DNA of 59,057 nucleotides. It comes from a virus (lineage: Duplodnaviria > Caudoviricetes). The position numbers were made by a program, and so were the translations under genes. The stretch spans positions 1-59,057 of IMG/VR virus record IMGVR_UViG_3300033183_000090, one strand, 5' to 3'. The notes beneath the pieces are model-generated. The model worked only from the letters and a program-made list of their open reading frames with translations, had not been told where the DNA came from and did not search any database. Shown here in pieces: positions 8,730 through 54,629 of the stretch. The stretch's first letter is position 1. Each line of letters begins with the position of its first letter.

Positions 8730-8762
8730 GGGACGACTAGTTCTCTAAGTCTGTGAAATGAT
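8730..8762 (+). promoter_or_regulatory. Putative late promoter GGGACGAC-N19-AATGAT
   Basis: Same motif and spacing as 20840, 22209, 34925 and 54553; upstream of terS. Confidence 0.55.
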
Positions 8763-9043
8763 TAGAGGTAGGTCTCTCAACACCAGTAGACTGGAGACAT
8801 CTCACCACTGTTGGGAAACGAGAGAGGTCTCAGTACCAAGAAACATCCCTATGAGGGAGATGAAACGCTAGGAAATTCAATGGGTTACGAGACTCAACGG
8901 ACACAACCTGACCAAACACAAGGGCTGTTTCGAGGGATGGGGGCCGTAGGGGGGTATCCCGCCGTCGGCTTTTCGTGATCGCCATGTCCGGCCCCTCGAA
9001 ATTTCGCGGCAAAATTTGAAAATGACTGTTACGGAAATAAGAC

Positions 9044-9451
9044 ATGCCTAAGTACCGCAAAGACGCAAACCCAGAAAAAGGATCAGGGGGGCTGGCACCA
9101 GTTACACCAATGCAAGTCGATCGCGTGCGTCGATCTGTACTGGATGTTGTACGGAAGAACATTCCAGAGGTGAGGGAGGTGTTGGCTGGTACGCGCAAGT
9201 GGGACGCTCAGCAGACAAGACTATTCACTGTTCTACTAAACAAAGTCATGCCAGACCTGCATCACTCGTTCAACGAACACACCATCGAGAACAAGCCGAC
9301 CCACGAGCTAACCATCCAAGAGCTTGAGGCCATTGCCGCGCAGGCACAGCGGGACGACCCACAGGACAATATCGACGATACTACTGAAGAAATCAGCGAC
9401 GCTGAAATTATCGAGATGATTGACGAGGCAGAAGATGGGAAGCAGACTTAG
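9044..9451 (+). CDS. terS: Putative terminase small subunit
   Basis: Position upstream of terL; LLNKVMPDL and ELTIQELEAI patterns. Confidence 0.6.
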   Translation: MPKYRKDANPEKGSGGLAPVTPMQVDRVRRSVLDVVRKNIPEVREVLAGTRKWDAQQTRLFTVLLNKVMPDLHHSFNEHTIENKPTHELTIQELEAIAAQAQRDDPQDNIDDTTEEISDAEIIEMIDEAEDGKQT

Positions 9452-10163
9452 CGACGCTATTGGCGAAGTGGACTGGCTGGGGCCAATCGAGGGCGAGGGC
9501 GCACTCCATATCACGCCACAAACTGCCGCCGTTGCACGCGGCGTAGTCGACCCCGGCGGTGGGGCCATCAGTCTGCGCGGTGACGTAGCCCTAGAGTCCC
9601 ACATGGACAACGGCGCGTTCGTTGGCGCTGGTGTGCGTGGTCATGGCGGACTAGCCAATGGTCGCATCCATTACGGTGGAAACCCGTACCTCACAATCAA
9701 CAACCCAGTCTCTGCCATTCCCGCCGAACATTGGATACGCCGCGACGGTGCAGACCATCGCAACTTCATGCCCGGCGAAACCTCTATGGGTATCAACGGC
9801 AACAACATGGGCGTCCACTACAGTCGCACAGACGAGGCAGACTACCAGCCACAGATCGACCATATCCGCCTGATGTTCAACCAAGCCCTGAAGAGCGGCA
9901 TGCTCGAAGGCTACATCGAGAAGGTGCGCACTGGCGACTTCAACGGCTGGGATGGCTCAACAGAAACAGGCGCTGGCGTCAGTTACCGTGGCGATCACTT
10001 CGGTGCCAGATACGACACCCGCCGCCACGGCGACGGCACTCGCTCTCACTCCGTTGGGGCAGACTATGCAAAGGGCGGCTTCAGCGCTGGCATATCCGCC
10101 GACCAGTACGGCAATGAACGCCCAAGCGTAAACGCTGGGATCAGATACGAGGTACAGTTCTAA
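9435..10163 (+). CDS. Gly/aromatic-rich beta-barrel-like protein
   Basis: Alternating amphipathic strands, ends YEVQF; ATG at 9435 follows GAGG (track start 9420). Confidence 0.6.
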   Translation: MGSRLSDAIGEVDWLGPIEGEGALHITPQTAAVARGVVDPGGGAISLRGDVALESHMDNGAFVGAGVRGHGGLANGRIHYGGNPYLTINNPVSAIPAEHWIRRDGADHRNFMPGETSMGINGNNMGVHYSRTDEADYQPQIDHIRLMFNQALKSGMLEGYIEKVRTGDFNGWDGSTETGAGVSYRGDHFGARYDTRRHGDGTRSHSVGADYAKGGFSAGISADQYGNERPSVNAGIRYEVQF

Positions 10164-10483
10164 TGTCAGAAAACTTCCACAACAAAATCTATTACCACCA
10201 AACAGACCGTCCCCGCGACGAAGTCACCCACTACGCTGGCAACACCCAGCAGAAACCACTAACCCGCACACCAGACGGCGGCCAGCAGATGGGCGACCAA
10301 CGCGCTTGGCTCCATGTGGCTAACTCGCTGAGAGCGGAATACGACCACTACGGCCCTGAAGAGTTTGAGCGCCGCCACGGTGTCTCGTGGGAAGAGGTTT
10401 CAAAGATGGTTACGGACGCACTGGACAATGCTCCGACATCCCCTTTCTACATGGCACCTCCACGAAACATGCGCGACAGGTAA
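10163..10483 (+). CDS. Hypothetical protein (106 aa)
   Basis: TAATG-coupled ORF. Confidence 0.6.
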   Translation: MSENFHNKIYYHQTDRPRDEVTHYAGNTQQKPLTRTPDGGQQMGDQRAWLHVANSLRAEYDHYGPEEFERRHGVSWEEVSKMVTDALDNAPTSPFYMAPPRNMRDR

Positions 10484-10490
10484 CCCCTTA

Positions 10491-12110
10491 ATGTCACTAT
10501 CACCCCAAGAAGCCGCTCAATATCTACTGCGCCTCAAGAAGGCGCAATCATCGTTTAAGGAGTTCGTAAGTGCGCTATACCCGAATTTTGAACTGGCAGA
10601 TTTTCAACTCGAACTCATTGAGACGTTGGATGCTCTTGAGCGCGGTACGCTTGGATGTCAGCGTTTGCTTATTACGATGCCGCCTCGCCACGGCAAATCT
10701 TGGATCGCGTCGACGCTCTTCCCGGTTTACTACCTTGCTCGAAAGCCTAATCGAAACGTACTTGCAACCTCTTACAACCAAGACTTGGCGAAAACTTTCG
10801 GGCGTCAAACGCGAGACCACGCCAGAGAGCCGCTCGTAAGCCAAGCCTTTCCAGACTTCCGCATGTCAGACGAGTCTAAAGCCGTCGACGACTGGCGCAC
10901 GACTCTGGGCGGTTCTTACTACGCAACAGGTATGGGCGGCTCCACAACTGGCCGCGCCGCAACATTACTCTTAGTCGACGACCCTATTAAAGCCCGCGAA
11001 GAAGCGGACTCAGCAACTCAACGTAATAAAACTTGGAGCTACTATGTCTCTGCACTCACTACTCGTAAACAGCCAGAACCTGATGGCACAAAGCCTATCG
11101 AAATCGTTATCCTTACTCGGTGGCATCCTGCCGATCTGGCAGGTCAAATTATGGATACAGACGACTGGAAAGAAGGAGCATGGCACCACGTCAACTTCCC
11201 AGCCATCCGAAGAGTTAAGGGAACCATCAAGCAATCCGTCGCCAGCCTCCCCGAAGACGACCCGCGCTACATCCCGCAAGGCGAACTCAGCAAAGTCGCC
11301 CCCGGCAAACGGCACTACTACCCGGAAGAGGAAGCCGCGCTCTGGCCCGAACGCTTCCCGCTCGAAGAACTCAAGAAGCGCGAAAGACTAGACGCCCGAG
11401 AGTTTGCGTCTCTCTACCAGCAGTCGCCATACATCCAAGGCGGTAACCTGATCCGCCAGCAGTGGTGGCGTCAGTACAAGGTAGACGAAACGCCATACTG
11501 CCCGACCGTCATCATCGCTTGCGACACAGCCTTCAAGAAGACTGAGACCGCAGACTACAGTGTGATGATGACGCTGGGCATGGATCAGTCTGGCGACATC
11601 TTCATCCTCGACATCCTCCGCGACAAGCTCGACTTTCCCGAACTCAAGCGAGCCGCAGTCGCACAGAACGCAAAATGGCGAGGACGCGGCCTTCGTGGCT
11701 TCTACATCGAGGACAAAGCGTCAGGCCAATCCCTAATCCAAGAACTCCGCAACCAGTCTGGCATCGCAGTCATTCCAGTAAAGATCGGTAGCGACAAAGT
11801 GTCCCGCGTCAACGCCGTACTGCCTCTTATCGAAGGGGGACGAGTTTTTGTTCCAGATCAGGCAGAATGGCTGGACAAGTTTATGGATGAGGCACAGACG
11901 TTCCCGAGTGGTGCGCATGACGACATGGTCGACGCCTTATCTATTGGACTTGACGCAATTTCACGGATGGGCGGCCAAGTGTCTGAAATGCTTAGCGGCC
12001 CGATCCATGTAGGGAACTCGTTGAACGCCCAGATGAAAACCACGGGCGGCAAATGGTGGGAAAAAGAGATGAAAGTCGAGCCACAATTCAAAGGTTGGGG
12101 AGAGGTATAA
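10491..12110 (+). CDS. terL: Terminase large subunit
   Basis: MPPRHGKS Walker A, LLLVDDP, TRWH, DTAFK, IEDKASG, HDDMVDA. Confidence 0.95.
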   Translation: MSLSPQEAAQYLLRLKKAQSSFKEFVSALYPNFELADFQLELIETLDALERGTLGCQRLLITMPPRHGKSWIASTLFPVYYLARKPNRNVLATSYNQDLAKTFGRQTRDHAREPLVSQAFPDFRMSDESKAVDDWRTTLGGSYYATGMGGSTTGRAATLLLVDDPIKAREEADSATQRNKTWSYYVSALTTRKQPEPDGTKPIEIVILTRWHPADLAGQIMDTDDWKEGAWHHVNFPAIRRVKGTIKQSVASLPEDDPRYIPQGELSKVAPGKRHYYPEEEAALWPERFPLEELKKRERLDAREFASLYQQSPYIQGGNLIRQQWWRQYKVDETPYCPTVIIACDTAFKKTETADYSVMMTLGMDQSGDIFILDILRDKLDFPELKRAAVAQNAKWRGRGLRGFYIEDKASGQSLIQELRNQSGIAVIPVKIGSDKVSRVNAVLPLIEGGRVFVPDQAEWLDKFMDEAQTFPSGAHDDMVDALSIGLDAISRMGGQVSEMLSGPIHVGNSLNAQMKTTGGKWWEKEMKVEPQFKGWGEV

Positions 12111-13997
12111 ATGGATTACAAAAGTGATTTGACGATCCCCCAACGTGACGTAGTCGTCGACTTGTCGAACTTAGCTGAGAAGCTAATGAACTATGACGAC
12201 ATCTCGGACATGCTCTCGGAAGAACAAGAGCAGAAGCTAATCAACTACGTCCACTCAATCTCGAAGATGTCGCATGACCGCATCTCACGCCGCTACGACC
12301 ACTGGCGCGATGCAGACCGTGCGCACGACGTATGGGTGCCTGCTGACAGTACAAAGTTCCGAGAGAAGATCGTAGTCGCGGACACACGCGCAATCGCCGA
12401 CACAGTCCTCACTTACCTCATGGCGGCCCTCACGGGCCGCAACCCTATGTTCCAACTGGAAGGCTTGAACCGCAAGTCTCGCCAGTCGTCCATGATCCTT
12501 GAGCGTCTGCTACACCAGCACATGCGCCGCACAGCAGGCGAGGCACGCATCGCGCAACTCCTGCTCGACTCGATCCGCTACGGCTTTGCTCCTACAAAAG
12601 TAGTATGGAACCCGCAGACTAAGACTAACGACATCGTGAACTTCGACCCACGTCGCTGTTTCCCTGACCCTCGTGTCAACTGGGGCGACTGGGATCGCAT
12701 GCAGTTCATCGTCTACAGCGACCACATGTCGACTGGCGCTCTCATCGGTTCGGGCCTTTACCCGAAGGTAAGCAAGTACCCAGCGCTCCGCCGCAAGATG
12801 CCAATGCGCCACGCATGGGAATCACACGGTTGGTTCAAAGAGGAGGGCCGTGGCCTCAACCTCAACCCAGAAGACCCAATCGCTACAGCAAACAACGGCT
12901 CGTACTTCTCGCTAGACAGTTCCCGTATCGTCGACGAGGCGTGGATACGCTTCAACGGCTACGAGTTGAACATCCCGCAAGTCGAGCAAATCTGGATGCT
13001 TGTCACCGTCCTCGACGAACAAGTCGTAATCCGCGCACAGCTAAACCCTTATGGCCGTCAGTTCCCGACGGTCATTGGCGGCCTGTACCATGACAGCCAC
13101 AAGACTTACGCCCAGTCGCTATATGATCTTCTCCTCCCACTCCACGAGATCAGTACTTGGCTCCTCCGCAGTCGCGTGGACAACGTGCAGGCCGCCCTCA
13201 ACAACCTGATCTTCGTCGACCCGACCTCTGTGTCTGTACCCGACCTGATCGACCGCAATCCTTGGGGTCTCGTTCGCACATTGCCGGGTACCAAGCCCGG
13301 TGACGGTGTGTTCATCGCCGAGGTGCCAGACGTAACTCGCGGCCACTGGAACGACATCGGTGCGATGTCTGAACTGAAGCAACGTGTGTCTGCCGCCTCA
13401 GACGCCCAGCAGGGCATGCCAACCAGTGACGGTATCCGTACCGCCACCGAGATTGCGCGACTAACCCAGCTTGGCTCGCAACGCCTTGGCGTTATCGCCC
13501 GTATCATGTCGTCCACCACCATCCGCCCACTTGTGCGCATGATGGTTGGCAACCTGCAAGACGCGCTCGAATACGAAGGCTCACTCCGCATCCTTGCTGA
13601 CGACAGCCCCGGACAACTGAGCGGCCTCATCAAGGACGACTATCTCGACTTCGACGTAGGCATGCTTCAGGGCGACATCGACTACCTAGTCGTAGACGGC
13701 ACACTGCCAATCGAACCAACGCGGAACGCAGAGACATGGATGAACATCCTGCAAGTGATGAACGGCGCTGGTCTGAACATGGAATACAAGGTTGGCAAGA
13801 TCGCCGAAGAAGCCATCCGCTCGATGGGCGTCAGCGACCTTGACCAGTTCAAGATCAGTTCCCAAGAGCGCCAGCAAGGCATGACCCCATCACAGCAGAT
13901 GTCGATGATGGAGCGTATGCGTGGCGCGAACGTGATGCCTCAAGAGCAGATGCAGAACGAAATCCAAAAAGGCAACCTGAAGAGATTGGGGGAGTAA
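12111..13997 (+). CDS. Portal protein
   Basis: 628 aa directly after terL; RTATEI motif of P22/SU10-type portals. Confidence 0.85.
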   Translation: MDYKSDLTIPQRDVVVDLSNLAEKLMNYDDISDMLSEEQEQKLINYVHSISKMSHDRISRRYDHWRDADRAHDVWVPADSTKFREKIVVADTRAIADTVLTYLMAALTGRNPMFQLEGLNRKSRQSSMILERLLHQHMRRTAGEARIAQLLLDSIRYGFAPTKVVWNPQTKTNDIVNFDPRRCFPDPRVNWGDWDRMQFIVYSDHMSTGALIGSGLYPKVSKYPALRRKMPMRHAWESHGWFKEEGRGLNLNPEDPIATANNGSYFSLDSSRIVDEAWIRFNGYELNIPQVEQIWMLVTVLDEQVVIRAQLNPYGRQFPTVIGGLYHDSHKTYAQSLYDLLLPLHEISTWLLRSRVDNVQAALNNLIFVDPTSVSVPDLIDRNPWGLVRTLPGTKPGDGVFIAEVPDVTRGHWNDIGAMSELKQRVSAASDAQQGMPTSDGIRTATEIARLTQLGSQRLGVIARIMSSTTIRPLVRMMVGNLQDALEYEGSLRILADDSPGQLSGLIKDDYLDFDVGMLQGDIDYLVVDGTLPIEPTRNAETWMNILQVMNGAGLNMEYKVGKIAEEAIRSMGVSDLDQFKISSQERQQGMTPSQQMSMMERMRGANVMPQEQMQNEIQKGNLKRLGE

Positions 13998-14294
13998 ATG
14001 GCTACACCTAAAGCGGCGCAACTAGAACAAGCCACAGGCTTCACTCCCAACCAAAAGGCTTGGGTGAAAGCACTTGTGTCTGAAGCAGTGAGCGCGACAA
14101 CCACAGCACTGCAAGCGGAAATCCGCGCAGAGATCGCCAAAGCACACAGCGGCAGTCAGGCGACCGCCTCGACTGGCACAAAAGTGTTGGAAGATCGTAT
14201 TGAATCCCTCGCTCAAAGGTTCGAGGAGGACGACAAGTATAGCCTTACCAAGGCAAAATTGGTTCGTCTAATGAAGCAGATGGGGATTGACTGA
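13998..14294 (+). CDS. Hypothetical protein
   Basis: GGAG RBS, coupled ORF. Confidence 0.7.
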   Translation: MATPKAAQLEQATGFTPNQKAWVKALVSEAVSATTTALQAEIRAEIAKAHSGSQATASTGTKVLEDRIESLAQRFEEDDKYSLTKAKLVRLMKQMGID

Positions 14295-15331
14295 TGGCAA
14301 TCACGTCACCAACCACAGAGCAACTACGATTTCGCTCTTCTAAAACAGGTATTCACAACCTCGACGCCTATTTAGAGGCCGCCGAGAAAGGTGGCCGTGA
14401 GCTTCCCGATCTGCTTGATGACCTCTTCGATGCCAACGGTGACATCGACCCCAACCTGTTTCAGTTCCGCGTAAACAGTTCGACCTATAAACTTCAGGTT
14501 CGTGTAGGCCAGTTTGGCACCTCAAACGCTGGCTATGTAGATGTGCCGGACGGCACGTTCTTCCGCCCAACTGGTGCGTTCATTACTGGCACCTCATACG
14601 AAATCCACGACTTGTTTGAGGACGGCGGTAACCTTTACATGGTCACCGTCGCTCACGTCGGCGGCGCTATTCCTGACGTAACGAAGACACAGATTGTTCT
14701 GCGCGGCGGTGCGGGCGCTGTCCCCTCAACAACCACTCGTCTCGCGGGTCACAAAGGCCACTTCTTGCAAGTGGACTCAACCCAGTCTGGGTACAACCTA
14801 GTTCCATTTGCTGACAGCAACATTTTTTACGGCATCAGCGTGAACGCCAGCAACGAGTTCGAGATGACTGTTGTAGGCAAGACGCTTCAGTTGGCAGAGG
14901 CCGCAGTCATTACAAGTCTGCAAAACTATGTCACTGGCGACATGACTGATCCTTTAGTCGCAGTCGGATTCTGGGATGAATACTATGTCTACAACGGCAC
15001 GCAACGCCGGATGTTCGACGTAAACAACGACGGCGCGACCGTACCAGACTTGGACGACGTGATCGACTTAGCAAAGGTAATCGCTGGTATCACGACTAGC
15101 GGCGTCGCTTACGACGCATACGCTCTGCACATTAAGCCGACGCTCGTATCACGCGAAGCCGCGTACTCTAACTACGACGTGAATACAGGCGTAGACGTTG
15201 AGAAACTATTCAACTGGGCGCTTGATCCATCTCCTAACGCCGTCAATCCCAAAGACTACGACGCCTATTTCATCGGCAACGGTAGCGCCGACTTATCAGT
15301 CGTAAACAACGAATTGGTGCTAACGCTATGA
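14294..15331 (+). CDS. Virion/tail-associated protein with an EF-hand/dockerin-like loop
   Basis: Structural context; DVNNDG...DDVIDLAKVIAG. Confidence 0.65.
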   Translation: MAITSPTTEQLRFRSSKTGIHNLDAYLEAAEKGGRELPDLLDDLFDANGDIDPNLFQFRVNSSTYKLQVRVGQFGTSNAGYVDVPDGTFFRPTGAFITGTSYEIHDLFEDGGNLYMVTVAHVGGAIPDVTKTQIVLRGGAGAVPSTTTRLAGHKGHFLQVDSTQSGYNLVPFADSNIFYGISVNASNEFEMTVVGKTLQLAEAAVITSLQNYVTGDMTDPLVAVGFWDEYYVYNGTQRRMFDVNNDGATVPDLDDVIDLAKVIAGITTSGVAYDAYALHIKPTLVSREAAYSNYDVNTGVDVEKLFNWALDPSPNAVNPKDYDAYFIGNGSADLSVVNNELVLTL

Positions 15332-17049
15332 CAATAGATATATCGAATCTCGGACAGAAATGGCGTGGGCTTTACTCAGACAGCGCCGAGTACAAGAAAG
15401 GCGATGTCGTCCGCAAGGACGGCCACCCGCAGGTGTACAACGGAACCAACTGGTCTAAGATCGGCGTCAGCCAACTCAATGCCACGACTAAGGGCGAAAT
15501 TCTTTCGCCGGGGGCTACGCGCTCTATCAACGGCGTTAGCGGGCAAGAGCTAGTCGTTGGATCGGGCGGCGTCATTCAATTCGCGTACAAAGAAGGCCGC
15601 CACGGCAACACAGTCTACAAACTGGCACGCACTCAGCACCGCGCCGCAGAAGGCGAAGTATGGAACAAGGGCATTAGCAGTTCCTTGTACGGTCTTCCAC
15701 ATCAGAACTTCGGCTTCATTATGACTGACGGCTCCGTCCGCATGATTGGCCGATCAGACAACGGGACACTAGGCACTGGCAACACAAACGACATCAGCCG
15801 CGCCTTCCCGGTAACCGCCGCTTTCCCTCCGGGAACAGCGCCAATCGTTGACCTTGTCATGGGGCCACACGCCGCAACAACAGCCGCGATTGACGCAGAC
15901 GGTCAACTTTGGATGTGGGGCGAGAACAACTACGGCCAATGCGGTGTTGGCAACACAACAGACGTGCGCGTCCCAACGCTAATCAATGGTCGAGGTCAGC
16001 TACCAGCAAACGCCAAAGTCACTTCTGTTGAGTTCGGCACTGCTCCTTGGTGGGGCTACCACTGCACAATGCTCCAGTGTGACGATGGCCGAATCTACGC
16101 TATGGGTTCCAACAGATATGGCGCTCTTGGTTTTGAAAACGGTAGCTCATCAGACACATATTCGCCGACTTTAGTTCCGATTAGTGAGCGACTGAACATT
16201 GTTCGCTACTATCCAACGGCACAATATCACCAGTCTACAGTCTGGATCACGGACGAAGGCCACGTCTACATGTGCGGCGAGTACAACTCGATTGGCCGCA
16301 CAGCCACAGACAACGCATCTTACAGCTACCCACGCTTGTGGGCGCAGTCGATTATCGACCCAATCAAACACTTCTCTAACGAGGAAAGTGACTCGCACGC
16401 TCGTACTGGCGACCAATACTACCGCCACTACACATTTACCTCATGGGCTGGGAACACTTACCGCTGGGGCCACACTCAGATTTATTCTGGCACAGGGCCG
16501 TCGTATCCTTCGGCTGAAGCATGGGTTCCTTGGCTAGATGACCGCCATGGACAGCAAGCCGCAGAATACTATGGCACTCAAGGCGATTACCCAACCAACA
16601 TGCTTCGCACAAAAGACGGGCGCATATACGGCATTGGGTACGGCGGCCACGGTGCCGCAACATTCGGTAACGGCAATCAAAGCCAGTGGCTCGAACTAAC
16701 CGATCTCGGAAGTGACAACAAATATCTGTGGCACGGCGGCGCTCGTTACGGCAAAGCCGCGCTAGTCTGGAAGAACGATGGACGTATTATTTATTGGGGC
16801 ATGGCTCGTAATGGTGTTGCTGGTATGGGAGCAGACTTTAGTGGCACAAACACAGAGCCAGTAAAGTTGAACAGGAAAATCGTAGATTTCCAAATTGCCG
16901 GGTATGGGTACGACGACACCGGGTACAACAGGTTATATTTCCTTGACGAGCATGGCGTGGCCTATGGGTGCGGCCAGAACAACTACAACGTACTAGGCTT
17001 CGATGATGACAATGAAAGCATCTACACGCCGACGACCGTGATCTTTTAA
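15328..17049 (+). CDS. RCC1/BLIP-II-repeat tail/receptor-binding protein 1
   Basis: Repeats such as GQLWMWGENNYGQCGVG; N-terminal W.G.Y.....Y..GDVV motif. Confidence 0.8.
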   Translation: MTIDISNLGQKWRGLYSDSAEYKKGDVVRKDGHPQVYNGTNWSKIGVSQLNATTKGEILSPGATRSINGVSGQELVVGSGGVIQFAYKEGRHGNTVYKLARTQHRAAEGEVWNKGISSSLYGLPHQNFGFIMTDGSVRMIGRSDNGTLGTGNTNDISRAFPVTAAFPPGTAPIVDLVMGPHAATTAAIDADGQLWMWGENNYGQCGVGNTTDVRVPTLINGRGQLPANAKVTSVEFGTAPWWGYHCTMLQCDDGRIYAMGSNRYGALGFENGSSSDTYSPTLVPISERLNIVRYYPTAQYHQSTVWITDEGHVYMCGEYNSIGRTATDNASYSYPRLWAQSIIDPIKHFSNEESDSHARTGDQYYRHYTFTSWAGNTYRWGHTQIYSGTGPSYPSAEAWVPWLDDRHGQQAAEYYGTQGDYPTNMLRTKDGRIYGIGYGGHGAATFGNGNQSQWLELTDLGSDNKYLWHGGARYGKAALVWKNDGRIIYWGMARNGVAGMGADFSGTNTEPVKLNRKIVDFQIAGYGYDDTGYNRLYFLDEHGVAYGCGQNNYNVLGFDDDNESIYTPTTVIF

Positions 17050-17061
17050 TGGAGAGACAGA

Positions 17062-19125
17062 ATGGCAACAGTTAATCTAGGGAAGGTATCCTTTAGTTGG
17101 AAGGGGGCATACGACGCAACTGCCACTTACAACGAACAGGACATCGTGAATTATGAAGGCTCGTCGTATGTCTGTACGACTGACCAGACCACTGGTGTTA
17201 CGCCTGTCTCCAATGTGTTCTACAACGTAAACCCGCAGACTATCTCCTATGTAGTCACGGTGGCGCAGGACGCTGGCGGGATTGACCGTCTGTTTATTGA
17301 TGGGACTCAACAGCAAGTTCTCACGCTTCAGCGCGGCAACACTTACATCTTCGATGTATCTGACCCCTCAAACGTAGGCCACCTGCTTGATTTCAATGAC
17401 GGCGGCGTCCAGTACACTGGTACGGGTGTTACCCGGAACGGCACTGTTGGCACTGCAAACGCGAATGTAACCTTTGTTCCGCCATTAACACTGGTCACAT
17501 CTAGCTTTGAATATGTTTGCGCCAACCACGCAGACGAAGGTGCTTCGATCACGATCAACTCAACAGCTTCAAACACTGGTTACATCGCCGCATCTAATTG
17601 GGATTTGTTCGCGCAGGGCGTTGAGGGCATCACTACTGACCCTAACGACATCCTGTACTACGACGGTAATCAACTACAGAAACTGTCCGCTGGTAACGTC
17701 GGCGACGTGCTTTCTATTGGCAATAACGGCCTCCCAGAGTGGAGCGCACACAAGGCTCGCACAGGCGTGCGCGTCACAGCAATCAACGACCATCGCACCA
17801 TGATGTATCGCAGAGGGTGCGCTGTTATGGATGATGGCTCTGTGCGCTGGTGGGGCAGGGGCGAAAACTGGATGTTAGGCCAAGGGTCTTACACCGCTGA
17901 CCGCTCATACCCAATCCGCACGGCGTTCCCGCATGACGCAAAAGCCATCAAGTACATCTGTGGTCAGTACGACTACCAGTCCATCGCTATCGACGTTGAT
18001 GGTGGCCTCTACGTCTGGGGACAGAACGATTATGGTGATTGCGGCACTGGCAACACATCAGATGTCTGGACGCCATACTACGCATCCGGCAACAACGCGA
18101 ACTCTATATACGGCAAAGTAGTGACAGACTACGCGCCGATGTGTTCAAACCAAAACTACAACTCGACTTTGGTTCTGTGCGACGACGGTACGGTACACGC
18201 TTCTGGGTACAACGGATACGGCCAACTGGGCGTTGGCGATACGACTAACCGCTCAAACTTCGTCGAGCTACAGCTACTCACTGATGCAAACAATAAGGTA
18301 GTCCAGATTGAGCGCGGCAACGAGCGCTACACTCACTGCTTGGCATTGCGCGAAGATGGCAATGTGTGGTCTTGGGGCTACAACACCAGTGGTCAGTTGG
18401 GTCATGGGAACACTACACAGCTAAACATCCCACAGCGCATCCAGTATTTCGTGACCAATAACATCACGATCAAGAAAATTGGGTGCGGCAACGGTACTTC
18501 GTGGGCAATCGACACCAACGACAACTTGTATGTCTGGGGCTATAACGGCTACGGCAACTTGGGCCACAACGGCACAACCACTAACGCTGTTACATACTCA
18601 CCAGTCCTAGTCCTGACGGATGTGGCTAACTGCTACATGTGCCAAGCCGACTACGACTTCACGATTGCTCGCAAGACAGATGGCACTATCTGGGCAACTG
18701 GCGACAATAGCTATGGATGCCTCGGCGTTGCGGCTGACACAACAGACCGCTCTGGCTTCACACAATGTTGCAGAAACGGAAGCACCACCGACTACATGCA
18801 AAACATTGTGAAAGTCGTACATGGCGGCACAGGGTCGTACAACTACGCAATCGCGCTAGACGCTGACGGTGTTGCTTGGTCTGTAGGCTATAGCGGCAAC
18901 GGCCAGTTGGGGCGTGGCACAAGCGACGCAACAAACTACTTCTATTACCCAGTCCTGCTTAACAAAACTATCGTCGATATTTGTTGTGTAGGAACAGGCT
19001 CCGAAGGCGGCACCTGCTTCCTTTGCGATGATGGCTCAATGTACCAGTGTGGTTACGCAGGCGAATCTCAGTTGCCTGAAGACGACGACGAGTACATTCA
19101 GACACCAATGCCTGTGATCTTCTGA
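17062..19125 (+). CDS. RCC1/BLIP-II-repeat tail/receptor-binding protein 2
   Basis: Multiple WG.N.YGQLG.G repeats; CBM5/12-like N-terminus; cupredoxin-like insert. Confidence 0.85.
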   Translation: MATVNLGKVSFSWKGAYDATATYNEQDIVNYEGSSYVCTTDQTTGVTPVSNVFYNVNPQTISYVVTVAQDAGGIDRLFIDGTQQQVLTLQRGNTYIFDVSDPSNVGHLLDFNDGGVQYTGTGVTRNGTVGTANANVTFVPPLTLVTSSFEYVCANHADEGASITINSTASNTGYIAASNWDLFAQGVEGITTDPNDILYYDGNQLQKLSAGNVGDVLSIGNNGLPEWSAHKARTGVRVTAINDHRTMMYRRGCAVMDDGSVRWWGRGENWMLGQGSYTADRSYPIRTAFPHDAKAIKYICGQYDYQSIAIDVDGGLYVWGQNDYGDCGTGNTSDVWTPYYASGNNANSIYGKVVTDYAPMCSNQNYNSTLVLCDDGTVHASGYNGYGQLGVGDTTNRSNFVELQLLTDANNKVVQIERGNERYTHCLALREDGNVWSWGYNTSGQLGHGNTTQLNIPQRIQYFVTNNITIKKIGCGNGTSWAIDTNDNLYVWGYNGYGNLGHNGTTTNAVTYSPVLVLTDVANCYMCQADYDFTIARKTDGTIWATGDNSYGCLGVAADTTDRSGFTQCCRNGSTTDYMQNIVKVVHGGTGSYNYAIALDADGVAWSVGYSGNGQLGRGTSDATNYFYYPVLLNKTIVDICCVGTGSEGGTCFLCDDGSMYQCGYAGESQLPEDDDEYIQTPMPVIF

Positions 19126-19136
19126 GGAACGGGAAA

Positions 19137-19394
19137 GTGACGGATACAGTGACCCTCTCACAAGCCGAACTAGAAGTCCTTCTCCAGCAAGCCGCGAAGC
19201 GGGGGGCGGAGGAGGCTCTAAACAAGCTCGGCCTGCATGATGACAACGCGGGCCACGACATCCGGGAACTCCGCCAGCTTATCGACAGTTGGCGGGAGGT
19301 AAAACTAACTGCGACTAAGACCCTAGTTAAGTGGCTTATGCTCGGTATCATCGGCATAATTTCGCTTGGCGCTTACCTTAACATTAAGCCGTAA
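19137..19394 (+). CDS. DUF6127-like small membrane protein
   Basis: AAKRGAEEAL.KLGL.D..A..DIRELR.LID.WR plus C-terminal TM helix. Confidence 0.7.
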   Translation: MTDTVTLSQAELEVLLQQAAKRGAEEALNKLGLHDDNAGHDIRELRQLIDSWREVKLTATKTLVKWLMLGIIGIISLGAYLNIKP

Positions 19395-19396
19395 CC

Positions 19397-19690
19397 ATGA
19401 CGAACAAGCAAAAGTATGAACAACTTGAAAAACTACTGAAGACGCAAGGGTGGACAGTCCTCCAAGAGGAAATGCGCAAGTCTATCCTGCAAGCGGCTTT
19501 TCAACTGTCTGAGAAATCAGAGATGTCAGTTGATGAAATACACTTTCGACGCGGTGCCATGTGGGCCGCGAAGAAGTTTCTCGATCTGCCCGAAGCTGTT
19601 AAGGCGCTCCTTAACAATGAAATACTGATGGAAGCAGTGCAGAAAGGCGAGATCAAAACCGATGAGCGCTACGGCCCTCAAAACATGTAA
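19397..19690 (+). CDS. Hypothetical head-module protein
   Basis: GW..L...M / F.RG pattern; lies just before the scaffold gene. Confidence 0.7.
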   Translation: MTNKQKYEQLEKLLKTQGWTVLQEEMRKSILQAAFQLSEKSEMSVDEIHFRRGAMWAAKKFLDLPEAVKALLNNEILMEAVQKGEIKTDERYGPQNM

Positions 19691-19721
19691 CGTCCGCTAC
19701 GGCTGACAAAGGAGTAAGAAA

Positions 19722-20822: not shown

Positions 20823-20830
20823 AATAAATT

Positions 20831-20872
20831 TCAGGAACAGGGACGACAAATCACCTGTTCCTGACTTTTAAT
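20831..20872 (+). promoter_or_regulatory. Terminator-like hairpin with embedded GGGACGAC-N19-TTTAAT promoter
   Basis: TCAGGAACAGG/CCTGTTCCTGA stem then CTTTT; motif at 20840-20847. Confidence 0.65.
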
Positions 20873-21021
20873 ACAGGTAAGGAAGCACGAGTCGCTACGG
20901 CCACCCGCCTTTCTGTAAAAGGGAAATGCAAGTCTTCACTGTGGCTGGAGTCCAGAAGATGAGCAGTATGCCCAGCAAAACGCAACATGTTTAACCAATG
21001 CACGTCTGAAGGAGATTCGTT

Positions 21022-22200: not shown

Positions 22201-22208
22201 TCCCGATA

Positions 22209-22241
22209 GGGACGACTTCCAGAGCCTTGTGGCGATAAACT
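22209..22241 (+). promoter_or_regulatory. Putative late promoter GGGACGAC-N19-TAAACT
   Basis: Intergenic copy of the repeated motif. Confidence 0.65.
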
Positions 22242-22268: not shown

Positions 22269-22285
22269 GTATGTAGGAGATAAGG

Positions 22286-22606: not shown

Positions 22607-22609
22607 CCT

Positions 22610-23248: not shown

Positions 23249-23251
23249 TGA

Positions 23252-40900: not shown

Positions 40901-43900
40901 GGCAAACAATACGCAAGCAACCACAAAGTCTACGACGGACAAGAGGGCAGTGGCTCTACACGCATCATGGCGTTGGACGGCAAGCCTGCGCTTAACAAGA
41001 TCATGCAGGCTCAGTACCAAGTACACGACTTCCTGCGTGACCTTCGTGCCGCTGGCGCATATCGCTACACAGATAGCGGTCTCGCTGGGGAACTGGACAT
41101 CGACGATGCAGGCCGCTCAGTTATTACCAAGTCTATTGCTGACCAGATGGAGGCGATGGATGCGGAGGCTGGCACCAATTCGTTTGAGGCACAAATTCGT
41201 GCGCTTCGTAACTCGAAAGCCGCATACGACGCACTGGACTGGGAGACAACAGCCCACCTGCATCGCCTTGCAAACAACTTAATCTTCGCCATGGAAGCGG
41301 GGATGAAGGAGTACAAGGCGATGTTTGTGCGCAATATGCCGAAGGACGCTCGTCAGGGCGGACTCGACATCGAGTTCGACACGGGCAAAGCCTTCCTGCG
41401 CAAGCCTTCAGCCAAGTCTTTGCAAGCGATGCGTCGTAACAAAGCCAAAGCAGAGCAAGAACTTCAGGAGATGGTCAACATCCAGACCCTGATCCGCGCA
41501 ATGAACGAGGCAGACATTGGCATCTACCTCGACGAAAACTCACTGGCAGACGTGAAACTGGACGTAGCTCCGGCCCGCATGTCTACCGCCGAGATCGTCA
41601 CCGAAGCCAGCGCACTGCCGAAAGATAATAAGCGCTATGTCGACTTGGCTAACGAGATGCGTAACCGCGAGAACACTCAAGGCCCATCAGCCGAAGAGCT
41701 TATCGCAGACTTGAGCGACGACGAGCGCTTGATCTTCGACACGATGGTCGACCGTGAGTCAGCCCAGCGCATCCTCGATCTGGCATCCAACGGTACTATT
41801 GCCAGCGGTAAGTTCCAGATCATTGCCGCAGACTACCTGCGCAAACTTGGCGTGGAGAACCCACTCAAGCCTACAAGCACCACAGTAAACAAGGCGATCA
41901 ATCGTCTGGTTGAGGTATCTGACGGGACTGACACTGGCAACGGTATCCCGCACGGCCTGCCTTCCTCCATGAAGGATCACATCGCTGGCCTGTCTCACCG
42001 CGAGAAGCGTGTTGAGCATAACCAGCGTTCGATCTTCACCAAGCTGATGCTGTTGATGGGTAAGAATGGTGACGACGAGATCATCAGCGAATACGATCTA
42101 GGCACGCTAGTCGGTCAACCCGGCGGCGACTTGGATGACACACTGCCGATCCCGACTAACCATCCACTTTACAACGATGTCCGTGACCGTATTCGCCTAG
42201 TCGCCCGCCTTGCAAAACAAGGCAAGCAAGATGAAGCGATCATCGAGGTTGCAGAGATTGCGTACCACATGATGTCAGGAAGCGAGCGCGACTTGCTTCG
42301 CCGAGTGGCTCGTGTCGACATCCCAATCGGCCCTAACGGCACGAAGATTGGTGGCCTCGATCCTAACGTGGAGGCAGATCAGGTTGCCCGCATCAAGGAA
42401 ATGGTTCTCGAAACCATGGAGAACGGTCAGCCGAACTGGATCGACATTGACCAAGTTCCTAAATTAGCAACTGCTAATAAGCTACTTCGGAACCTTGCTG
42501 AACACACCAGCTTCGTACTGAACGGCGTGTTTGATGGCGGCCCACAGAAACCTATGATGGCGGCGCATGGCGACATGCTTGCAGGCGCACGCAACAAGAC
42601 CCCGACCTTGTCGGCGGCTCGTGGCGTAGACGTTAAGAACATGCACCCAGCCGTGGCACCACGGGCTGTTCGTGAGTACATCAGTAACATTCCAGTGCGC
42701 ATCGAGACGGCGGTTCGCTCGTTCTTGGGTATCGACTCTGCATCGAAGTTGATCGACCACACATTCGTGAACGTGTCGAACAAGGCCAACGTGCGTGGCA
42801 TTACTGCAACAAACGAAGGCACATTCGGCTCCGGCATTTACATCCGTAGACTAAAGGATGCGGAAGCCGGGTACGATCCGCAGGCCACGAAGACCCAGCT
42901 AGAAGCTGAGATCGACAAGTCTAGCCTGTCCACCGAACAGCGTGGCGCGGCGACTGAAGTGGTTCAGGACATTCTCGGATTGCGTGAGCGCATCAAGTCT
43001 GCATCACAGGCAGGCTCGCCAAGTGCGCCAGCACTACCTGAGTTGCTACGTCGTGAGGCGCGTGCATGGTCGATCCTGAAGGACATGTTGCCAAGCATCA
43101 AACACAACAAGGTATCGCCTGTGTTTGCTCGCATCCGCAACCCGTTCCGCATGGATAGCCAGTCTAGCTACTCGCTTGTTTCGACAGACAGCAACAACAT
43201 TGGTTGGCTGATGGCTGAAGCGGCGAAACGCGGTCTGTTTAATGCAGAAGGCGCAACGAACCTACGACAAGCACTGCCACAGCAGTTCCACGGCGCAGAC
43301 CTGTTCAACGCATTGACCAGTGAAAACGGAATCATGGTTCGCCACGGCGAGGCGTCGTCATCTGCGGAAGCGAAAGACCAGTTGGCCTCCTTCTTGAGTG
43401 ACCAAGGCTTCGACTCACTTCAAGTCGACGACGGTTACATGATGTTCAATGAAGGCTCACTCCGTGAGCTTCAGGGTCAGTGGGCTGAGTCTGACATCAC
43501 AATGCACGGCGGCGAAAAGATTGGCGGCGATCTAAAGATCGGCGCACAAGTCGCAGAGGAGATGGTTGCTACAGGCGAAGTCCTAGACCAGAACATGTTT
43601 GTCGGCCTAGTTGCGCAAGCACAAAAAGCTGGCATGCCAGACGCGGCTATCCGTCCACTTCGCCGCATGGCGAAAGGCAGAGAGCTTGGGCCAAGCGACG
43701 TTGAGCGCGTTGGCCTCTTCTCATCTGTCCTGAACTACTTCAGTGAGAACTCGAAGTATTTCAGAACGATTGGTGCTAACTGGTTCGGTGACAAGATTAA
43801 GCCAGCCAACGGTACGGGCATCTACGAGATGCACGATGTTGAGCTTAATAACATCCTGTCTCCAATCTTCCTTGGTCGCAATCGTCAAGACGCATCGCTG

Positions 43901-50037: not shown

Positions 50038-50852
50038 TATTTGGACTCCTCTTGATGTGCGTCTTGCCATTTCTGGTACTCGTCGTCGTCCATATCCATA
50101 CGCTTGAACAACTCGACGATGTTCCCAGTCTTCTCAACTGCCTTGAGGCGACGATTTTCATCGCGCACCTTGCCTTTCCAGCCACGGACTTCTTCGGTCA
50201 CGACGTAGCGCACGACTTGCTGGCCGCTGTCACGGTCACCAGATGTGCTACGAACACCGCAGAAGACGCAGTCGAAAATGCCGGGCAGTTGTTGCATTGT
50301 CGCTTTACCGCCCACCATGGGCCAGTATTCGACATTGCCATTGTCGTCTTGGTTTTCTTTGGCGAGTGCCGTTACCAAGACGTGCATAGGCATATCCCTG
50401 ATAGCCTTGCATGCACCTATCAACTGGCTTGCGTGGCTCGACCATACTTCAAAGCCGTTCACGTTTTTGCCAGTCTTCTTAGCGTTCGCCTCTGCTTCCG
50501 CTTCTGCGGCTCGCATTGAGTGATCGCTGAGTTCTGTCAGTGAGTCGATGCCAACCCACTTGTAACCCTTCGACTTGAAGTCATCAGTGCGCATCCACTT
50601 GAAGATGTCGACGAAAGAGTATTCGTCTTTGTCTGGGTTGGACGCGCCACTCCAAGATGTGAAGGGCAGGTAGTCAATGCCAGCGGAGCGGACAGACGAT
50701 AGGCCAGACTCACCAGAAATGATGAACCCGTCGCCGTAATGCTCTTGGTAATAGATGAACTGGGTAGTCTTACCCCACCCGTGGTGTCCATACAACATGC
50801 ACTTGCGGTATGACGTTGTGTGGTCACGGGTGTTCCTCGGTGTGAACCCCAT
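50037..50852 (-). CDS. Sak4-like/AAA_24 ATPase (single-strand annealing)
   Basis: LYG..GWGKTT, ESGL, IDSLTE, K.R; adjacent to the SSB gene. Confidence 0.85.
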   Translation of the reverse strand: MGFTPRNTRDHTTSYRKCMLYGHHGWGKTTQFIYYQEHYGDGFIISGESGLSSVRSAGIDYLPFTSWSGASNPDKDEYSFVDIFKWMRTDDFKSKGYKWVGIDSLTELSDHSMRAAEAEAEANAKKTGKNVNGFEVWSSHASQLIGACKAIRDMPMHVLVTALAKENQDDNGNVEYWPMVGGKATMQQLPGIFDCVFCGVRSTSGDRDSGQQVVRYVVTEEVRGWKGKVRDENRRLKAVEKTGNIVELFKRMDMDDDEYQKWQDAHQEESK

Positions 50853-51256
50853 TAGCTAGTCTCCTTTACTGAAATTTTTGCTGGCCCCGGCTTACGAGTA
50901 AGTGCGGGTAGCAAGAGGCGCTTATCTTCGTCGTCAAGCGTTTGAAATCTGCGCTTGTCTACGGTGAGGCGCTTTTTGACATGCGTCGGCAGGTCATCCT
51001 GATTGCCGAACAAGTCGTCCAGCATCTCAGCGTCCCAAGTCCAACGCTCTTGGCGGTTTACAGTGATCGCATAGTGATCTGCGACCATGGTCTGCTCACC
51101 ACTTTCCTCTGAAAACTCTGCAAGTATCTTGTCATGCAGTGCTTCGATCTTTGCTTGGAGTTCCTCCTGCTGTCTTGTCAGCGCTTGGTACTCTTGTGCC
51201 GCTTCAGCTAACCCAGAGTTGGGCGCGGCAGTCTGGTATGTGTCCCAATCAGACAT
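50852..51256 (-). CDS. Hypothetical recombination-module protein
   Basis: GGAG RBS; coiled-coil N-terminus. Confidence 0.7.
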   Translation of the reverse strand: MSDWDTYQTAAPNSGLAEAAQEYQALTRQQEELQAKIEALHDKILAEFSEESGEQTMVADHYAITVNRQERWTWDAEMLDDLFGNQDDLPTHVKKRLTVDKRRFQTLDDEDKRLLLPALTRKPGPAKISVKETS

Positions 51257-51289: not shown

Positions 51290-51385
51290 ACATTATCTCA
51301 GTCACACATCTTAGACAACTGTATTTCATGTCAGGAATATGTCACAGATGTTTACGATGTGTCTCGTTTTCGGTACATACTATAC
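51290..51385. promoter_or_regulatory. Divergent promoter/operator region
   Basis: AT-rich gap between divergent operons; contains ATATGTCACAGAT and, on the minus strand, TGTC-TAAGAT. Confidence 0.55.
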
Positions 51386-51413
51386 CTGTTTCCACAGAAT
51401 AGGAGTGAAACCA

Positions 51414-51635
51414 ATGCTGAAATTTAATGCCGCACGTTTGGTCGAGGACTGCGGCGGGGTTTCCGCTGTCGCGCAGACCCTTGGTAAGACGCGCACAGCG
51501 CCTTATCGCATGCTCAAGACGGGCTACATGGGTACGCCCGTCCTCGCCAAGCTACTAGAGAAATACCCAGACCTTAACCTTAACAATTACTTTGAGGAAG
51601 TAACCGCGAATGGACACACACATCAGCAAGGATGA
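51414..51635 (+). CDS. Cro-like HTH protein
   Basis: GGVSAVAQTLGKT..A.Y; first gene of the replication operon. Confidence 0.7.
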   Translation: MLKFNAARLVEDCGGVSAVAQTLGKTRTAPYRMLKTGYMGTPVLAKLLEKYPDLNLNNYFEEVTANGHTHQQG

Positions 51636-53616: not shown

Positions 53617-53756
53617 TAGATGTATTAGCTAATTTAGCTACTTACGACAAAACCGAACGGCCTCAAGGAGGCCAGTTCGGCTCTTTGGGTAATTCCTCTA
53701 TTAACTATTATATGGCAGGGCGTCCGAAGGGCGTCAAGGACATTCATGTCAGTAAC

Positions 53757-53783
53757 AAAAACCCCCGTTGATGGGGGTTTTTT
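53757..53783 (+). terminator. Intrinsic terminator
   Basis: AAAAACCCCC...GGGGGTTTTTT. Confidence 0.7.
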
Positions 53784-53803
53784 CTTTGTCGAAAGGAGGA
53801 CAC

Positions 53804-54136
53804 ATGAGCAACCGCAAGCCACTTACTAAACAACAACTCAAGCGGCTTCGGTACATGCTAGAAAACGAATACACTTACCGCGCCATGGCAGTCTATGTCG
53901 GCGTATGCACGGACACACTTAAACGAATACTGGTACGAGAAGGCATGGCCGAGTTTGACGGCGCTAAGTACGCTGTCAGCCCTTACAAGTCATTGCAACA
54001 AACATGGGTGCGCCCCTGCCTCAAGTGCAGGGACGATGCCCCTCGACCTAAGTGGCAATATATATGTGACAAGTGCAAAGCGTCGACCGACGTAGCGGGC
54101 TTGCCAGACAACTGGTTGGAATTTGGCGATGAGTAG
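53804..54136 (+). CDS. HTH plus C4 zinc-finger protein (putative regulator)
   Basis: YRAMAVYVGVCTDTLKR; CLKC...CDKC. Confidence 0.7.
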   Translation: MSNRKPLTKQQLKRLRYMLENEYTYRAMAVYVGVCTDTLKRILVREGMAEFDGAKYAVSPYKSLQQTWVRPCLKCRDDAPRPKWQYICDKCKASTDVAGLPDNWLEFGDE

Positions 54137-54629
54137 ACAAAAAAGAAAAGGGGACGGGTACGAGCGAGAGTTAGCCAAGTGGCTAGACTGGATGCTCTTC
54201 CGAGGAACCGAACGCATCACGCGCATGCCCCTATCTGGGGGCGGCGCACATGTCGGGGGCGGGGGCAAGGCAGACTTGAACGGCACCCCCACCATCTGGG
54301 TGGAAGCCAAGCGCACCGAGCGCTTCACACCTTACGCCGCAATGGAGCAGGCGGAGAAGGGCATCAGCGCATCCAAGTCTGACGACATGCCAGTCGTCAT
54401 CACCCGGCGGAACCGAATGACAACCGAGCAATCTCTAGTCGTGATGCGGCTGGAAGACTGGGCCAACATGTACTCGTCATGGCTAGGCGAGTGCGGCTAC
54501 GACGTGTGGACAATCGAGGACGAACTCAACGAGATAGTCGAAGAGGTGCGTGGGGACGACAAAACCGCTGAGATTGTGCAATTATTCAAGCCAAGATCAG
54601 GAGATTCCGATGGCGAAGAAACCGATTAA
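54129..54629 (+). CDS. Holliday-junction resolvase (Hjc-like PD-(D/E)xK)
   Basis: KG..YERELA, ADL, WVEAK. Confidence 0.8.
   Translation: MSRQKRKGDGYERELAKWLDWMLFRGTERITRMPLSGGGAHVGGGGKADLNGTPTIWVEAKRTERFTPYAAMEQAEKGISASKSDDMPVVITRRNRMTTEQSLVVMRLEDWANMYSSWLGECGYDVWTIEDELNEIVEEVRGDDKTAEIVQLFKPRSGDSDGEETD
54553..54585 (+). promoter_or_regulatory. Putative late promoter GGGACGAC-N19-AATTAT
   Basis: Copy of the repeated motif ending 25 nt upstream of ATG 54610. Confidence 0.55.

Follow-up and report, generated by a model that had tools for sequence, protein, structure and literature searches.

The stretch of DNA analysed here (hereafter the window) is a complete IMG/VR virus record, IMGVR_UViG_3300033183_000090, of 59,057 bases, rated 100% complete and with a G+C content of 54%, and our subject is an octamer, GGGACGAC, that recurs along it and is followed 18-19 bp downstream by a hexamer resembling the -10 element of bacterial promoters. 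We consider it probable that the two elements together form the late-promoter class of CRP-810-type temperate marine phages, with the octamer taking the place of the -35 element. The closest cultured phage is Roseobacter phage CRP-810 (OR671924.1, our locus L099), and because its capsid protein is 65% identical and the order of the CobS/CobT, Prim-Pol, LuxR-integrase and giant virion genes is common to both, we place the window in the CRP-810-type family and take it to be a complete phage of that type; the integrase that it encodes marks it as temperate. CRP-810 founded a family, newly described by Wu et al. (2024, mSphere, PMC11288001), that takes in 251 uncultured genomes, is distributed through oceans worldwide and has SAR11 prophages among its members; in the main text of that paper the terms “promoter”, “sigma” and “RNA polymerase” do not occur. 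The genes and sites on which the argument turns are listed below, with N19 and N18 denoting spacers of 19 and 18 nucleotides (nt).

8730-8762, + strand: candidate late promoter 1, octamer GGGACGAC (8730-8737), N19 and AATGAT (8757-8762); predicted start near 8769
10365-12110: large terminase gene (terL)
12111-13997: portal gene
14227-14259, + strand: AGGACGAC-N19-CAAAAT, an ambiguous site that gene 13998-14294 contains at its 3' end; next ATG at 14294
20840-20872, + strand: candidate late promoter 2 (capsid), octamer (20840-20847), N19 and TTTAAT (20867-20872); predicted start near 20879
20890-20903, + strand: small hairpin in the capsid leader, core GCUACGGC, with a UACG loop
21022-22200, + strand: major capsid protein gene (phrog_1328)
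22209-22263, + strand: candidate late promoter 3, octamer (22209-22216), N19 and TAAACT (22236-22241); predicted start near 22248
28390-28421, + strand: TGGACGAC-N18-CAAAAT, an ambiguous site that gene 28020-28466 contains at its 3' end; next ATG at 28468
30258-30265, + strand: octamer of uncertain function, perfect also in its extended form (aGGGACGACa), with an ATG 127 nt downstream (30385)
32140-32147, + strand: perfect extended octamer in G-T-T codons, 14 nt before the ATG at 32154; hexamer score -0.5
34925-34957, + strand: candidate late promoter 4 (giant gene), octamer, N19 and TATTAT (34952-34957); predicted start near 34964
34994-46255, + strand: giant open reading frame (ORF) of 3753 amino acids (aa), with no Pfam, PHROG or PDB sequence match
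53804-54136, + strand: protein of 110 aa with an N-terminal three-helix helix-turn-helix (HTH) of the IS30/HTH_38-like kind and a C-terminal CxxC-N12-CxxC zinc ribbon (the HTH-Zn protein)
54553-54585, + strand: candidate late promoter 5, octamer, N19 and AATTAT (54580-54585); predicted start near 54592
54610-54864, + strand: basic Cys-rich protein of 84 aa (ATG at 54610; phrog_7595)
58337-58870, - strand: LuxR/GerE-type regulator (GerE 41.2 bits) carrying a coiled coil at its N terminus; the integrase gene follows directly downstream

A first-pass annotation of the sequence had proposed that GGGACGAC on the + strand at 8730, 20840, 22209, 34925 and 54553, followed exactly 19 nt later by AATGAT, TTTAAT, TAAACT, TATTAT and AATTAT, respectively, marks late promoters, and had added the variants at 14227 and 28390 ahead of genes 14294 and 28468. 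All of these positions, spacings and hexamers are correct, and the catalogue itself was incomplete, omitting four + strand copies (9351, 28661, 30258 and 32140) and one on the - strand (3604). Altogether the octamer occurs ten times in the window, nine times on the + strand and once on the - strand, as against 2.19 ± 1.55 copies in 100 dinucleotide shuffles, none of which reached ten, while the heptamer GGACGAC is found 23 times against 9.5 expected. Two of the omitted copies, at 9351 (R-D-D) and 28661 (W-D-D), are in-frame GAC-GAC codons. By our gene map the intergenic DNA of the window comes to 2405 bases, where 0.055 octamers would be expected; three lie there in full (Poisson P for at least three = 2.7e-5), and a fourth, with seven of its eight bases outside a gene, overlaps a stop codon. 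As to the genes said to follow these sites, phrog_1328 confirms the major capsid protein behind 20840, and the 3753-aa ORF behind 34925 and the small basic protein of 84 aa behind 54553 are confirmed as well; a gene is also present behind 8730 (9044-9451), its name, terS, reflecting position and no family match.

Evolutionarily, the arrangement is shared across the family. A capsid-protein scan of viral contigs returned 80 related loci (capsid identity 69-88%), of which 70 carry the exact word NGGACGAC 156-207 nt before the capsid start; among the other ten, four are cut off upstream, three have GGACGAT and three have GGGAAGAC at the same spot. Behind the capsid gene, an exact copy stands 4-17 nt past the end of the capsid match in 53 of the 80 loci, all 17 unique sequences without the exact word have GGACGA plus A or T at the same place, and the order of stop codon, octamer, N18/19, hexamer, hairpin, T run and Shine-Dalgarno (SD) site is kept in 34 unique related sequences. 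Seven other genomes were examined (G001-G003, G006-G008 and CRP-810; eight including the window), with capsid identity down to 58-65%, and in them the places of the octamer (core GGACGA) are shared: it stands upstream of the first late gene, of the portal, of the giant gene and of the gene for the 84-aa basic protein, and on both sides of the capsid gene. The portal junction carries it in many relatives, and the window itself, where terL and portal abut (12110/12111), has no such site. The sequence between octamer and hexamer is not conserved.

The individual sites are placed as follows. Promoter 1 lies in a divergent region ahead of the entire + strand packaging and structural block; the syntenic site of G001 reads TGGACGAC-N19-AATGAT with the same following bases, and in CRP-810 the block opens with gp63, GGGACGAC standing 39 nt ahead of that gene. 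The sites of CRP-810 are at 110, 2708, 15101, 16444 and 26413 on the reverse complement. At promoter 2, with the capsid ATG at 21022, the octamer sits in the loop of a hairpin (CAGGAACA/TGTTCCTG), and that of promoter 3 is found 9 nt after the capsid stop, the ATG of the next gene being at 22286. The octamer of promoter 4 overlaps the stop codon of gene 32154-34925, and the giant ORF begins with GTG at 34994 behind GGAG; octamer and hexamer precede the giant gene also in G001, G002, G003 and CRP-810, as well as in G008 (71 nt upstream), and in G007 an octamer (24641) lies 78 nt before a gene whose identity with the giant gene is not established. Promoter 5 has its octamer within the last 77 nt of a PDDEXK gene (G-D-D codons), and octamers are found ahead of homologs of the 84-aa protein gene in G001 (2477, 54 nt) and G003 (40046). 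Since this homolog lies inside the structural block of CRP-810, the 84-aa protein may be a virion or DNA-associated late protein. The leaders predicted at 22209, 34925 and 54553 are 18-40 nt long and contain GGAG-type ribosome sites.

Geometrically, the octamer (consensus a/g-GGACGAC-a/t, core GGACGA) and the hexamer behave as a two-part element. In the sequences counted, GGACGAC occurs at 248 unique sites of the late-gene strand as against 21 of the opposite one, and across the 248 the pattern TAnnnT occurs at spacers of 17, 18, 19 and 20 nt in 19, 19, 32 and 14 cases, as compared with 0-15 at any other spacer. With strong octamers defined by a score of at least 14 under a model trained only on the relatives' capsid-flanking sites, TAnnnT is present at a spacer of 17-20 nt in 69 of 142 unique sites, ten other 4-nt windows giving 1-17, and the opposite strand has four strong sites, none with TAnnnT. 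A hexamer model built from 88 related sites reads T-A-n-A-(A/C)-T, the sigma-70 -10 pattern, so that the hexamer is of the TATAAT-like kind. The first-pass reading thereby holds both for the antisense strand, on which the motif is far rarer (142 versus 4 strong sites; nine versus one copy in the window), and for the relatives, which keep motif, spacing and -10-like hexamer at syntenic places. An over-represented 8-mer with a strong strand bias is also what Chi sites look like, and the octamer could in principle be a Chi-like or other signal of DNA metabolism (recombination, packaging or replication) next to an incidental hexamer. Chi sequences, however, are host-specific and lie mostly inside genes, whereas this octamer is placed intergenically and syntenically, directly before genes, keeps a constant distance to its hexamer and is conserved in phages whose hosts differ, and we regard such a function as highly improbable.

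With N19, the octamer would span about -39 to -32, which is the place of the -35 element, and in this respect the first-pass claim that it stands in for a -35 is upheld as to position; the activator that was supposed to read it, and the choice of protein, are weighed below as candidates. What occupies the -35 place is ACGAC plus A or T, matching TTGACA at 3-4 of 6 positions with a 17-18 nt spacer and always with both leading T's replaced, so that a TTGACA-like -35 is lacking and no site passes a consensus promoter scan. Canonical sigma-70 matches in 8001-28000 number 4, against 11.0 ± 3.6 expected, and none coincides with a site. The partial match, overlapping the -35 at the right spacing, would also be expected if the octamer were the operator of a phage repressor that occludes the -35 of host sigma-70 promoters and silences the structural genes in the lysogen or in early infection, and a temperate phage with an integrase and HTH proteins would have the means for it. 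Nonetheless, TT, the most conserved pair of bases in a -35, is replaced without exception, a family-wide degenerate -35 is the look of activator-dependent promoters, and we know of no phage repressor with a monomer-type asymmetric operator at every late promoter, all of which makes activation the likelier mode and repression improbable.

Two blocks at a fixed spacing are likewise the pattern in which sigma factors read DNA, and, as described next, no phage sigma factor was found; octamer and hexamer might thus be read by a host alternative sigma factor, or by the housekeeping one with an unusual extended -35, and no phage factor would be needed. To this we attach little probability, given that the GC-rich octamer stays invariant although genome G+C varies from 0.485 to 0.578 over the eight genomes, and that, to our knowledge, it matches none of the alphaproteobacterial sigma consensus sequences (RpoH, EcfG, RpoN and FliA).

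Phage-encoded transcription machinery was sought at the protein level. A six-frame search of five records for Sigma70_r2 (PF04542) yielded no match at E<=1; this search was positive for 11 of 14 control genomes and would miss a very divergent T4 gp55-like protein, and the LuxR protein returned only region-4/GerE-like HTH matches. The giant protein, besides being without sequence matches in the databases named above, has no D.D.D motif, and none is conserved in its relatives; a very divergent polymerase would escape such a search. As far as these searches reach, then, the earlier statement that the phage carries no recognisable RNA polymerase or sigma gene is borne out. The presence of a giant virion protein also led us to consider an N4-like virion RNA polymerase acting at hairpin promoters, which we rejected because the giant protein has neither Pfam, PHROG or PDB matches nor D.D.D and because a hairpin at the octamer is missing in many relatives.

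From these observations, we posit the following mechanism. A host sigma-70-type holoenzyme would read the hexamer, and the octamer at about -39 to -32, since it keeps non-consensus bases at the -35 place, would be read by a phage-encoded factor, most likely the HTH-Zn protein acting as a monomer, which would be made from the replication operon and would recruit or stabilise RNA polymerase. The promoters so activated would be spread along the + strand late block (8730, 20840, 22209 and 34925), with the addition of 54553 and perhaps of 14227 and 28390. The capsid gene would be a unit of its own, with a promoter behind an upstream hairpin, a UACG-loop hairpin at the start of its mRNA and a strong terminator at its end, and the next promoter would be nested in that terminator, its transcripts starting inside the 5' arm and so escaping termination. 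The promoter interpretation first put forward for this DNA is, on the whole, partly supported: motif and spacing stand as proposed, strand bias and synteny are observed in addition, and the start sites, the late timing and the activating mode are predictions.

The octamer is probably read by a small phage DNA-binding protein and not by a host sigma factor alone, and the best fit among the three regulators that the first-pass annotation had named is the HTH-Zn protein. It is encoded close to the end of the rightward replication operon, with promoter 5 directly following, and it has homologs in all seven other genomes at 45-56% identity, and thus occurs in 8/8 including the window. In an alignment of 25 sequences the residues C35, D37, T38, K40, R41, L43 and R45 are invariant and lie at or in the third helix (36-45), which would suit an invariant DNA word, and 16 of the 25 members match HTH_38 at E<=1. 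Databases contain 48 homologs of the protein, of which several come from contigs of phage size (56-60 kb). Of the 50,697 phage genomes on deposit, CRP-810 alone encodes it; there the homolog, 45% identical over 75 aa, lies on the - strand at 14041-14262 of OR671924.1, in an unannotated gap between gp22 and gp23. No octamer-hexamer sites occur in two phages whose capsid is distantly related, none flanking their capsid genes, and neither phage is among the records that encode the HTH-Zn protein. An AF2 (AlphaFold2) model of the protein has a mean pLDDT (predicted local distance difference test) of 77.9. Viral scans with two homologs (P0047 and P0037) led to contigs that appear to be of the same phage family, as judged from their size (55-63 kb for most of the long ones) and from shared records, and a genome scan with the distant homolog P0039 led to two short Endozoicomonas contigs without sites, an uninformative result. 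Two leads on this protein were set aside: a PDB sequence profile match (8vd6, E 4e-5) is irrelevant, the entry being a de novo designed repeat protein, and GcrA, suggested by a neighbour cluster in the ESM Atlas in which 33% of the members carry it, was dropped after a Pfam scan of the 25 alignment members found no GcrA. That the HTH-Zn protein is the reader of the octamer is, in our view, a plausible but tentative identification.

The other two proposed activators fare less well. The zinc-ribbon ORF at 56020-56421, with a weak match to Ogr_Delta/NrdR ribbons (Ogr_Delta 18.3 bits against a cut-off of 26.3), occurs in none of the seven relatives and therefore cannot read a family-wide motif. 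The LuxR protein does contain the GerE domain expected of it, above the cut-off in 4/5 records, and is the weaker candidate owing to its moderate conservation (weaker or absent in G003 and G007) and its dimer-type coiled coil; lux-box-type sites are inverted repeats near -42.5 for a dimeric GerE regulator, and a single asymmetric octamer with no inverted partner does not appear to suit a protein of this type.

Several sequence features point to where transcripts might begin. The portal junction has a fixed layout in 10 of 18 unique relatives, in which the terL stop is followed by (T)AGGACGAC, N18/19, the hexamer and, after only N5-8, the ATG. The layout is seen in L029, L052, L059, L062, L069, L072, L081, L086, G006 and CRP-810, in the last at 2708-2746 on the reverse complement; in the CRP-810 annotation this places the octamer 38 nt before gp59, the portal gene. 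Such a layout leaves no room for an SD site, and transcription that began about 7 nt past the hexamer would have the A of the ATG as its first base, which suggests that the portal mRNA of these relatives is leaderless. In the capsid leader, GC[CT]ACGGC is present at all 76 loci with at least 200 nt of upstream sequence. RNAalifold finds here a hairpin whose UACG loop is closed by G-C and C-G pairs, followed by a C.Y mismatch and two covarying flanking pairs, of which the first (alignment columns 22-35) has both sides changed in 22 of 49 sequences and is broken in 2, and the second (columns 23-34) has both sides changed in 21 of 49 and is broken in 3. The hairpin is supported by this covariation and not by energy, the window's capsid leader folded alone being no more stable than shuffles (z = 0.28), and Rfam gave no match at the gathering score across the whole window on both strands. 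A variable outer stem encloses it, and of the 45 unique sequences that are correctly anchored, 44 have the start of the enclosing helix 1-13 nt past the hexamer, so that it would be the 5'-terminal hairpin of the predicted capsid transcript. The 5' terminus is the usual place for an mRNA-stabilising stem-loop. Both the portal geometry and the leader hairpin would fit a start about 7 nt after the hexamer.

At the other end of the capsid gene, a strong stem-loop (22242-22263) followed by TTTTT abuts the hexamer TAAACT, and this promoter-in-terminator arrangement is conserved. A start about 7 nt beyond the hexamer would fall inside the 5' arm of the stem, so that transcripts from promoter 3 would lack the terminator hairpin at which capsid transcripts would end, and would thus escape it. 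The pre-capsid octamer too is in or beside a hairpin, which in many relatives is followed by a T run and so makes a terminator-like end for the scaffold-like gene upstream; other relatives (e.g., L034, L050, L060, L064, L077 and L079) have no hairpin there. With the octamer in or beside terminator-like hairpins upstream of the capsid gene in many relatives, and 25 nt before the terminator downstream of it, one could ask whether it acts instead in RNA or co-transcriptionally, as the site of an antiterminator or processing factor near terminators. This we judge distinctly improbable, however, as hairpins are missing at many orthologous upstream sites and no terminator is found at 8730, 34925, 54553 or the portal sites, and as the fixed distance to TAnnnT and the hexamer-N5-8-ATG geometry of the portal would be left unexplained. 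Public RNA data are neutral on the matter: in 13 runs the matches amount to 5-13% of sampled words, all of them in assembled contigs, and in the four runs compared with 19500-23500, short contigs of relatives cover the capsid gene and its leader from 20908, 20918 and 20947 onward, none extending upstream of 20908; assembled contigs cannot show 5' ends, and therefore these data speak neither for nor against the predicted starts.

A number of points weigh against a phage-activated promoter class as described here, and against the HTH-Zn protein as its reader. Statistically, the -10 model was seeded with TAnnnT, which the unseeded spacer counts answer only in part, and the related sequences that enter those counts are not independent. 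At the -35 place, the 3-4/6 match of ACGAC plus A to TTGACA leaves room for weak reading by a host sigma factor or for repression by occlusion. Two perfect octamers (30258 and 32140) have no acceptable hexamer, the sites at 14227, 28390 and 54553 overlap conserved coding sequence, and the 3' end of the post-capsid hexamer is at the same time the A-tract of the terminator or an extension of its stem; since the A/T content of the hexamer partly serves the terminator, this site by itself would not prove a -10. As regards the reader, Foldseek found no match of the HTH-Zn model in the PDB at E<=0.001, only generic three-helix HTH folds, the link between protein and motif is one of co-occurrence within one family only, and other small family-wide proteins exist (51339-51635 and 50852-51256).

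Mechanistically, a phage factor that replaces -35 recognition is of a kind well known from other phages, and the surprise is accordingly moderate. T4 middle promoters combine a MotA box with a sigma-70 -10 and are activated by MotA and AsiA through sigma appropriation. The promoters proposed here would resemble them in that the host sigma reads a good -10, the -35 is replaced by an asymmetric phage word at a fixed distance, there are many copies genome-wide, and a small monomeric phage protein (here a candidate) is the reader. They differ in the word (GGGACGAC versus an AT-rich TGCTT-type box), in its centre (about -35.5 versus about -30) and spacing, in the candidate protein (HTH_38-like with a zinc ribbon), in the alphaproteobacterial host and in the temperate phage, and no MotA or AsiA family was found among the 26 proteins scanned against Pfam. 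In P2 and P4, Ogr/Delta sites are dyad-symmetric and lie near -55, Mu C binds a dyad at about -30 to -55, and the P2 activator is zinc-binding and made from an earlier transcription unit. Like these systems, the phage considered here is temperate, with several late promoters with a poor -35 along the structural genes and, as proposed, one small phage activator; unlike them, it has an asymmetric octamer at the -35 position, dyad sites near -55 not having been searched for here, and the only Ogr_Delta-like match, that of ORF 56020-56421, is the sub-threshold one absent from the relatives. Lambda CII binds as a tetramer to the direct repeat TTGC-N6-TTGC at pRE, pI and paQ, serving lysogeny genes. 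Both there and here the site overlaps the -35 of promoters that have no functional -35, and the activator is phage-encoded (in our case, by proposal); here, in contrast, the site is a single octamer and stands ahead of structural genes. By word, position, asymmetry and candidate protein, the motif is not a member of the T4 MotA, P2 Ogr, Mu C or lambda CII systems. Literature searches for GGGACGAC together with phage or promoter found no description of it, the papers listed being matches on primers, macrophages and aptamers, among them one phage paper in which it lies within a primer, with PMC11288001 covered in its main text.

More speculatively, the HTH-Zn proteins could represent a new monomeric family of HTH plus zinc ribbon that takes over the role of sigma region 4 on the host polymerase, and hence a hitherto unknown late switch in a global group of temperate marine phages that infect Roseobacter, SAR11 and other alphaproteobacteria, in which one promoter type would feed leaderless genes, mRNAs with 5' hairpins and terminator-embedded restarts; taken jointly, we hold this extended reading to be rather unlikely. 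A family-wide late-promoter signature would nevertheless be of practical use, in that operons and late genes could be annotated directly from it in hundreds of genomes from metagenomes, and in that it names a testable regulator of lysis-lysogeny output for which cultures exist (CRP-810 and FZCC0198, its host of the CHUG group) and provides an orthogonal promoter/regulator pair for marine alphaproteobacteria. The nested promoter in the terminator, the leaderless portal geometry and the UACG 5' hairpin would also be compact devices by which the amount of capsid relative to other proteins may be set.

The remaining sites are less clear. At 14227 both elements encode conserved residues (EDDKY...AKL), and sites like it are found in G002, G003 and CRP-810 and not in G001; its conservation could be due to the protein alone. 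The octamer at 28390 has a low score (10.5), and its G001 counterpart reads TGGACGAC-N18-AAAACT. The hexamer of the octamer at 30258 is poor (TACATA at N19, score -2.1), as is that of its G001 counterpart, AGGACGAC, and the octamer at 32140 is probably not a promoter.

Additional features were observed in the neighbourhood of these sites. Directly 5' of the octamer at 8730, a stable hairpin (CCCCTCC-TTCG-GGAGGGG) occupies 8713-8729, and on the - strand its arm gives the AGGAGG ribosome site of gene 8269-8709. A second copy of the (C)GCUACGGC hairpin lies at 19692-19707, just 5' of the SD site of the scaffold-like gene at 19722; a hairpin at this gene is found in the window, G001, G002, G003 and G008, often with another copy 24-28 nt upstream, and the element could possibly be an mRNA stabiliser, a processing site or a protein operator. 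In the right arm, the best canonical sigma-70 match (TTGACA-18-TATATT, 11/12) is at 57046-57017 on the - strand, upstream of the HTH gene 56505-56921, and is likely to be a host-type early or immunity promoter, and GTGACA-16-TACAGT stands at 51345-51318 ahead of the leftward recombination operon.

Elsewhere, the window encodes RCC1-repeat tail-fibre-like proteins, a holin and an endolysin, CobT/VWA, AAA_5 (CobS-like) and Prim-Pol/AAA_25 replicase proteins and a tyrosine integrase, and positions 19700-24700 have no near-identical DNA match in the phage collection. Relatives have giant ORFs of 2871-3902 aa that share 28-36% identity with the giant ORF of the window over long stretches, the corresponding region of CRP-810 being annotated as several genes. 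In four relatives the conserved 135-aa gene (9044-9451) and terL are neighbours, whereas in the window about 900 bases without counterpart there lie between them (9420-10365, including ORF 9420-10163); ahead of this stretch stands the octamer at 9351, which is followed by GATACT at N18. Lastly, the adjacent ORFs 27580-28023 (147 aa) and 28020-28466 (148 aa) both match one single gene in relatives, which indicates a tandem duplication.

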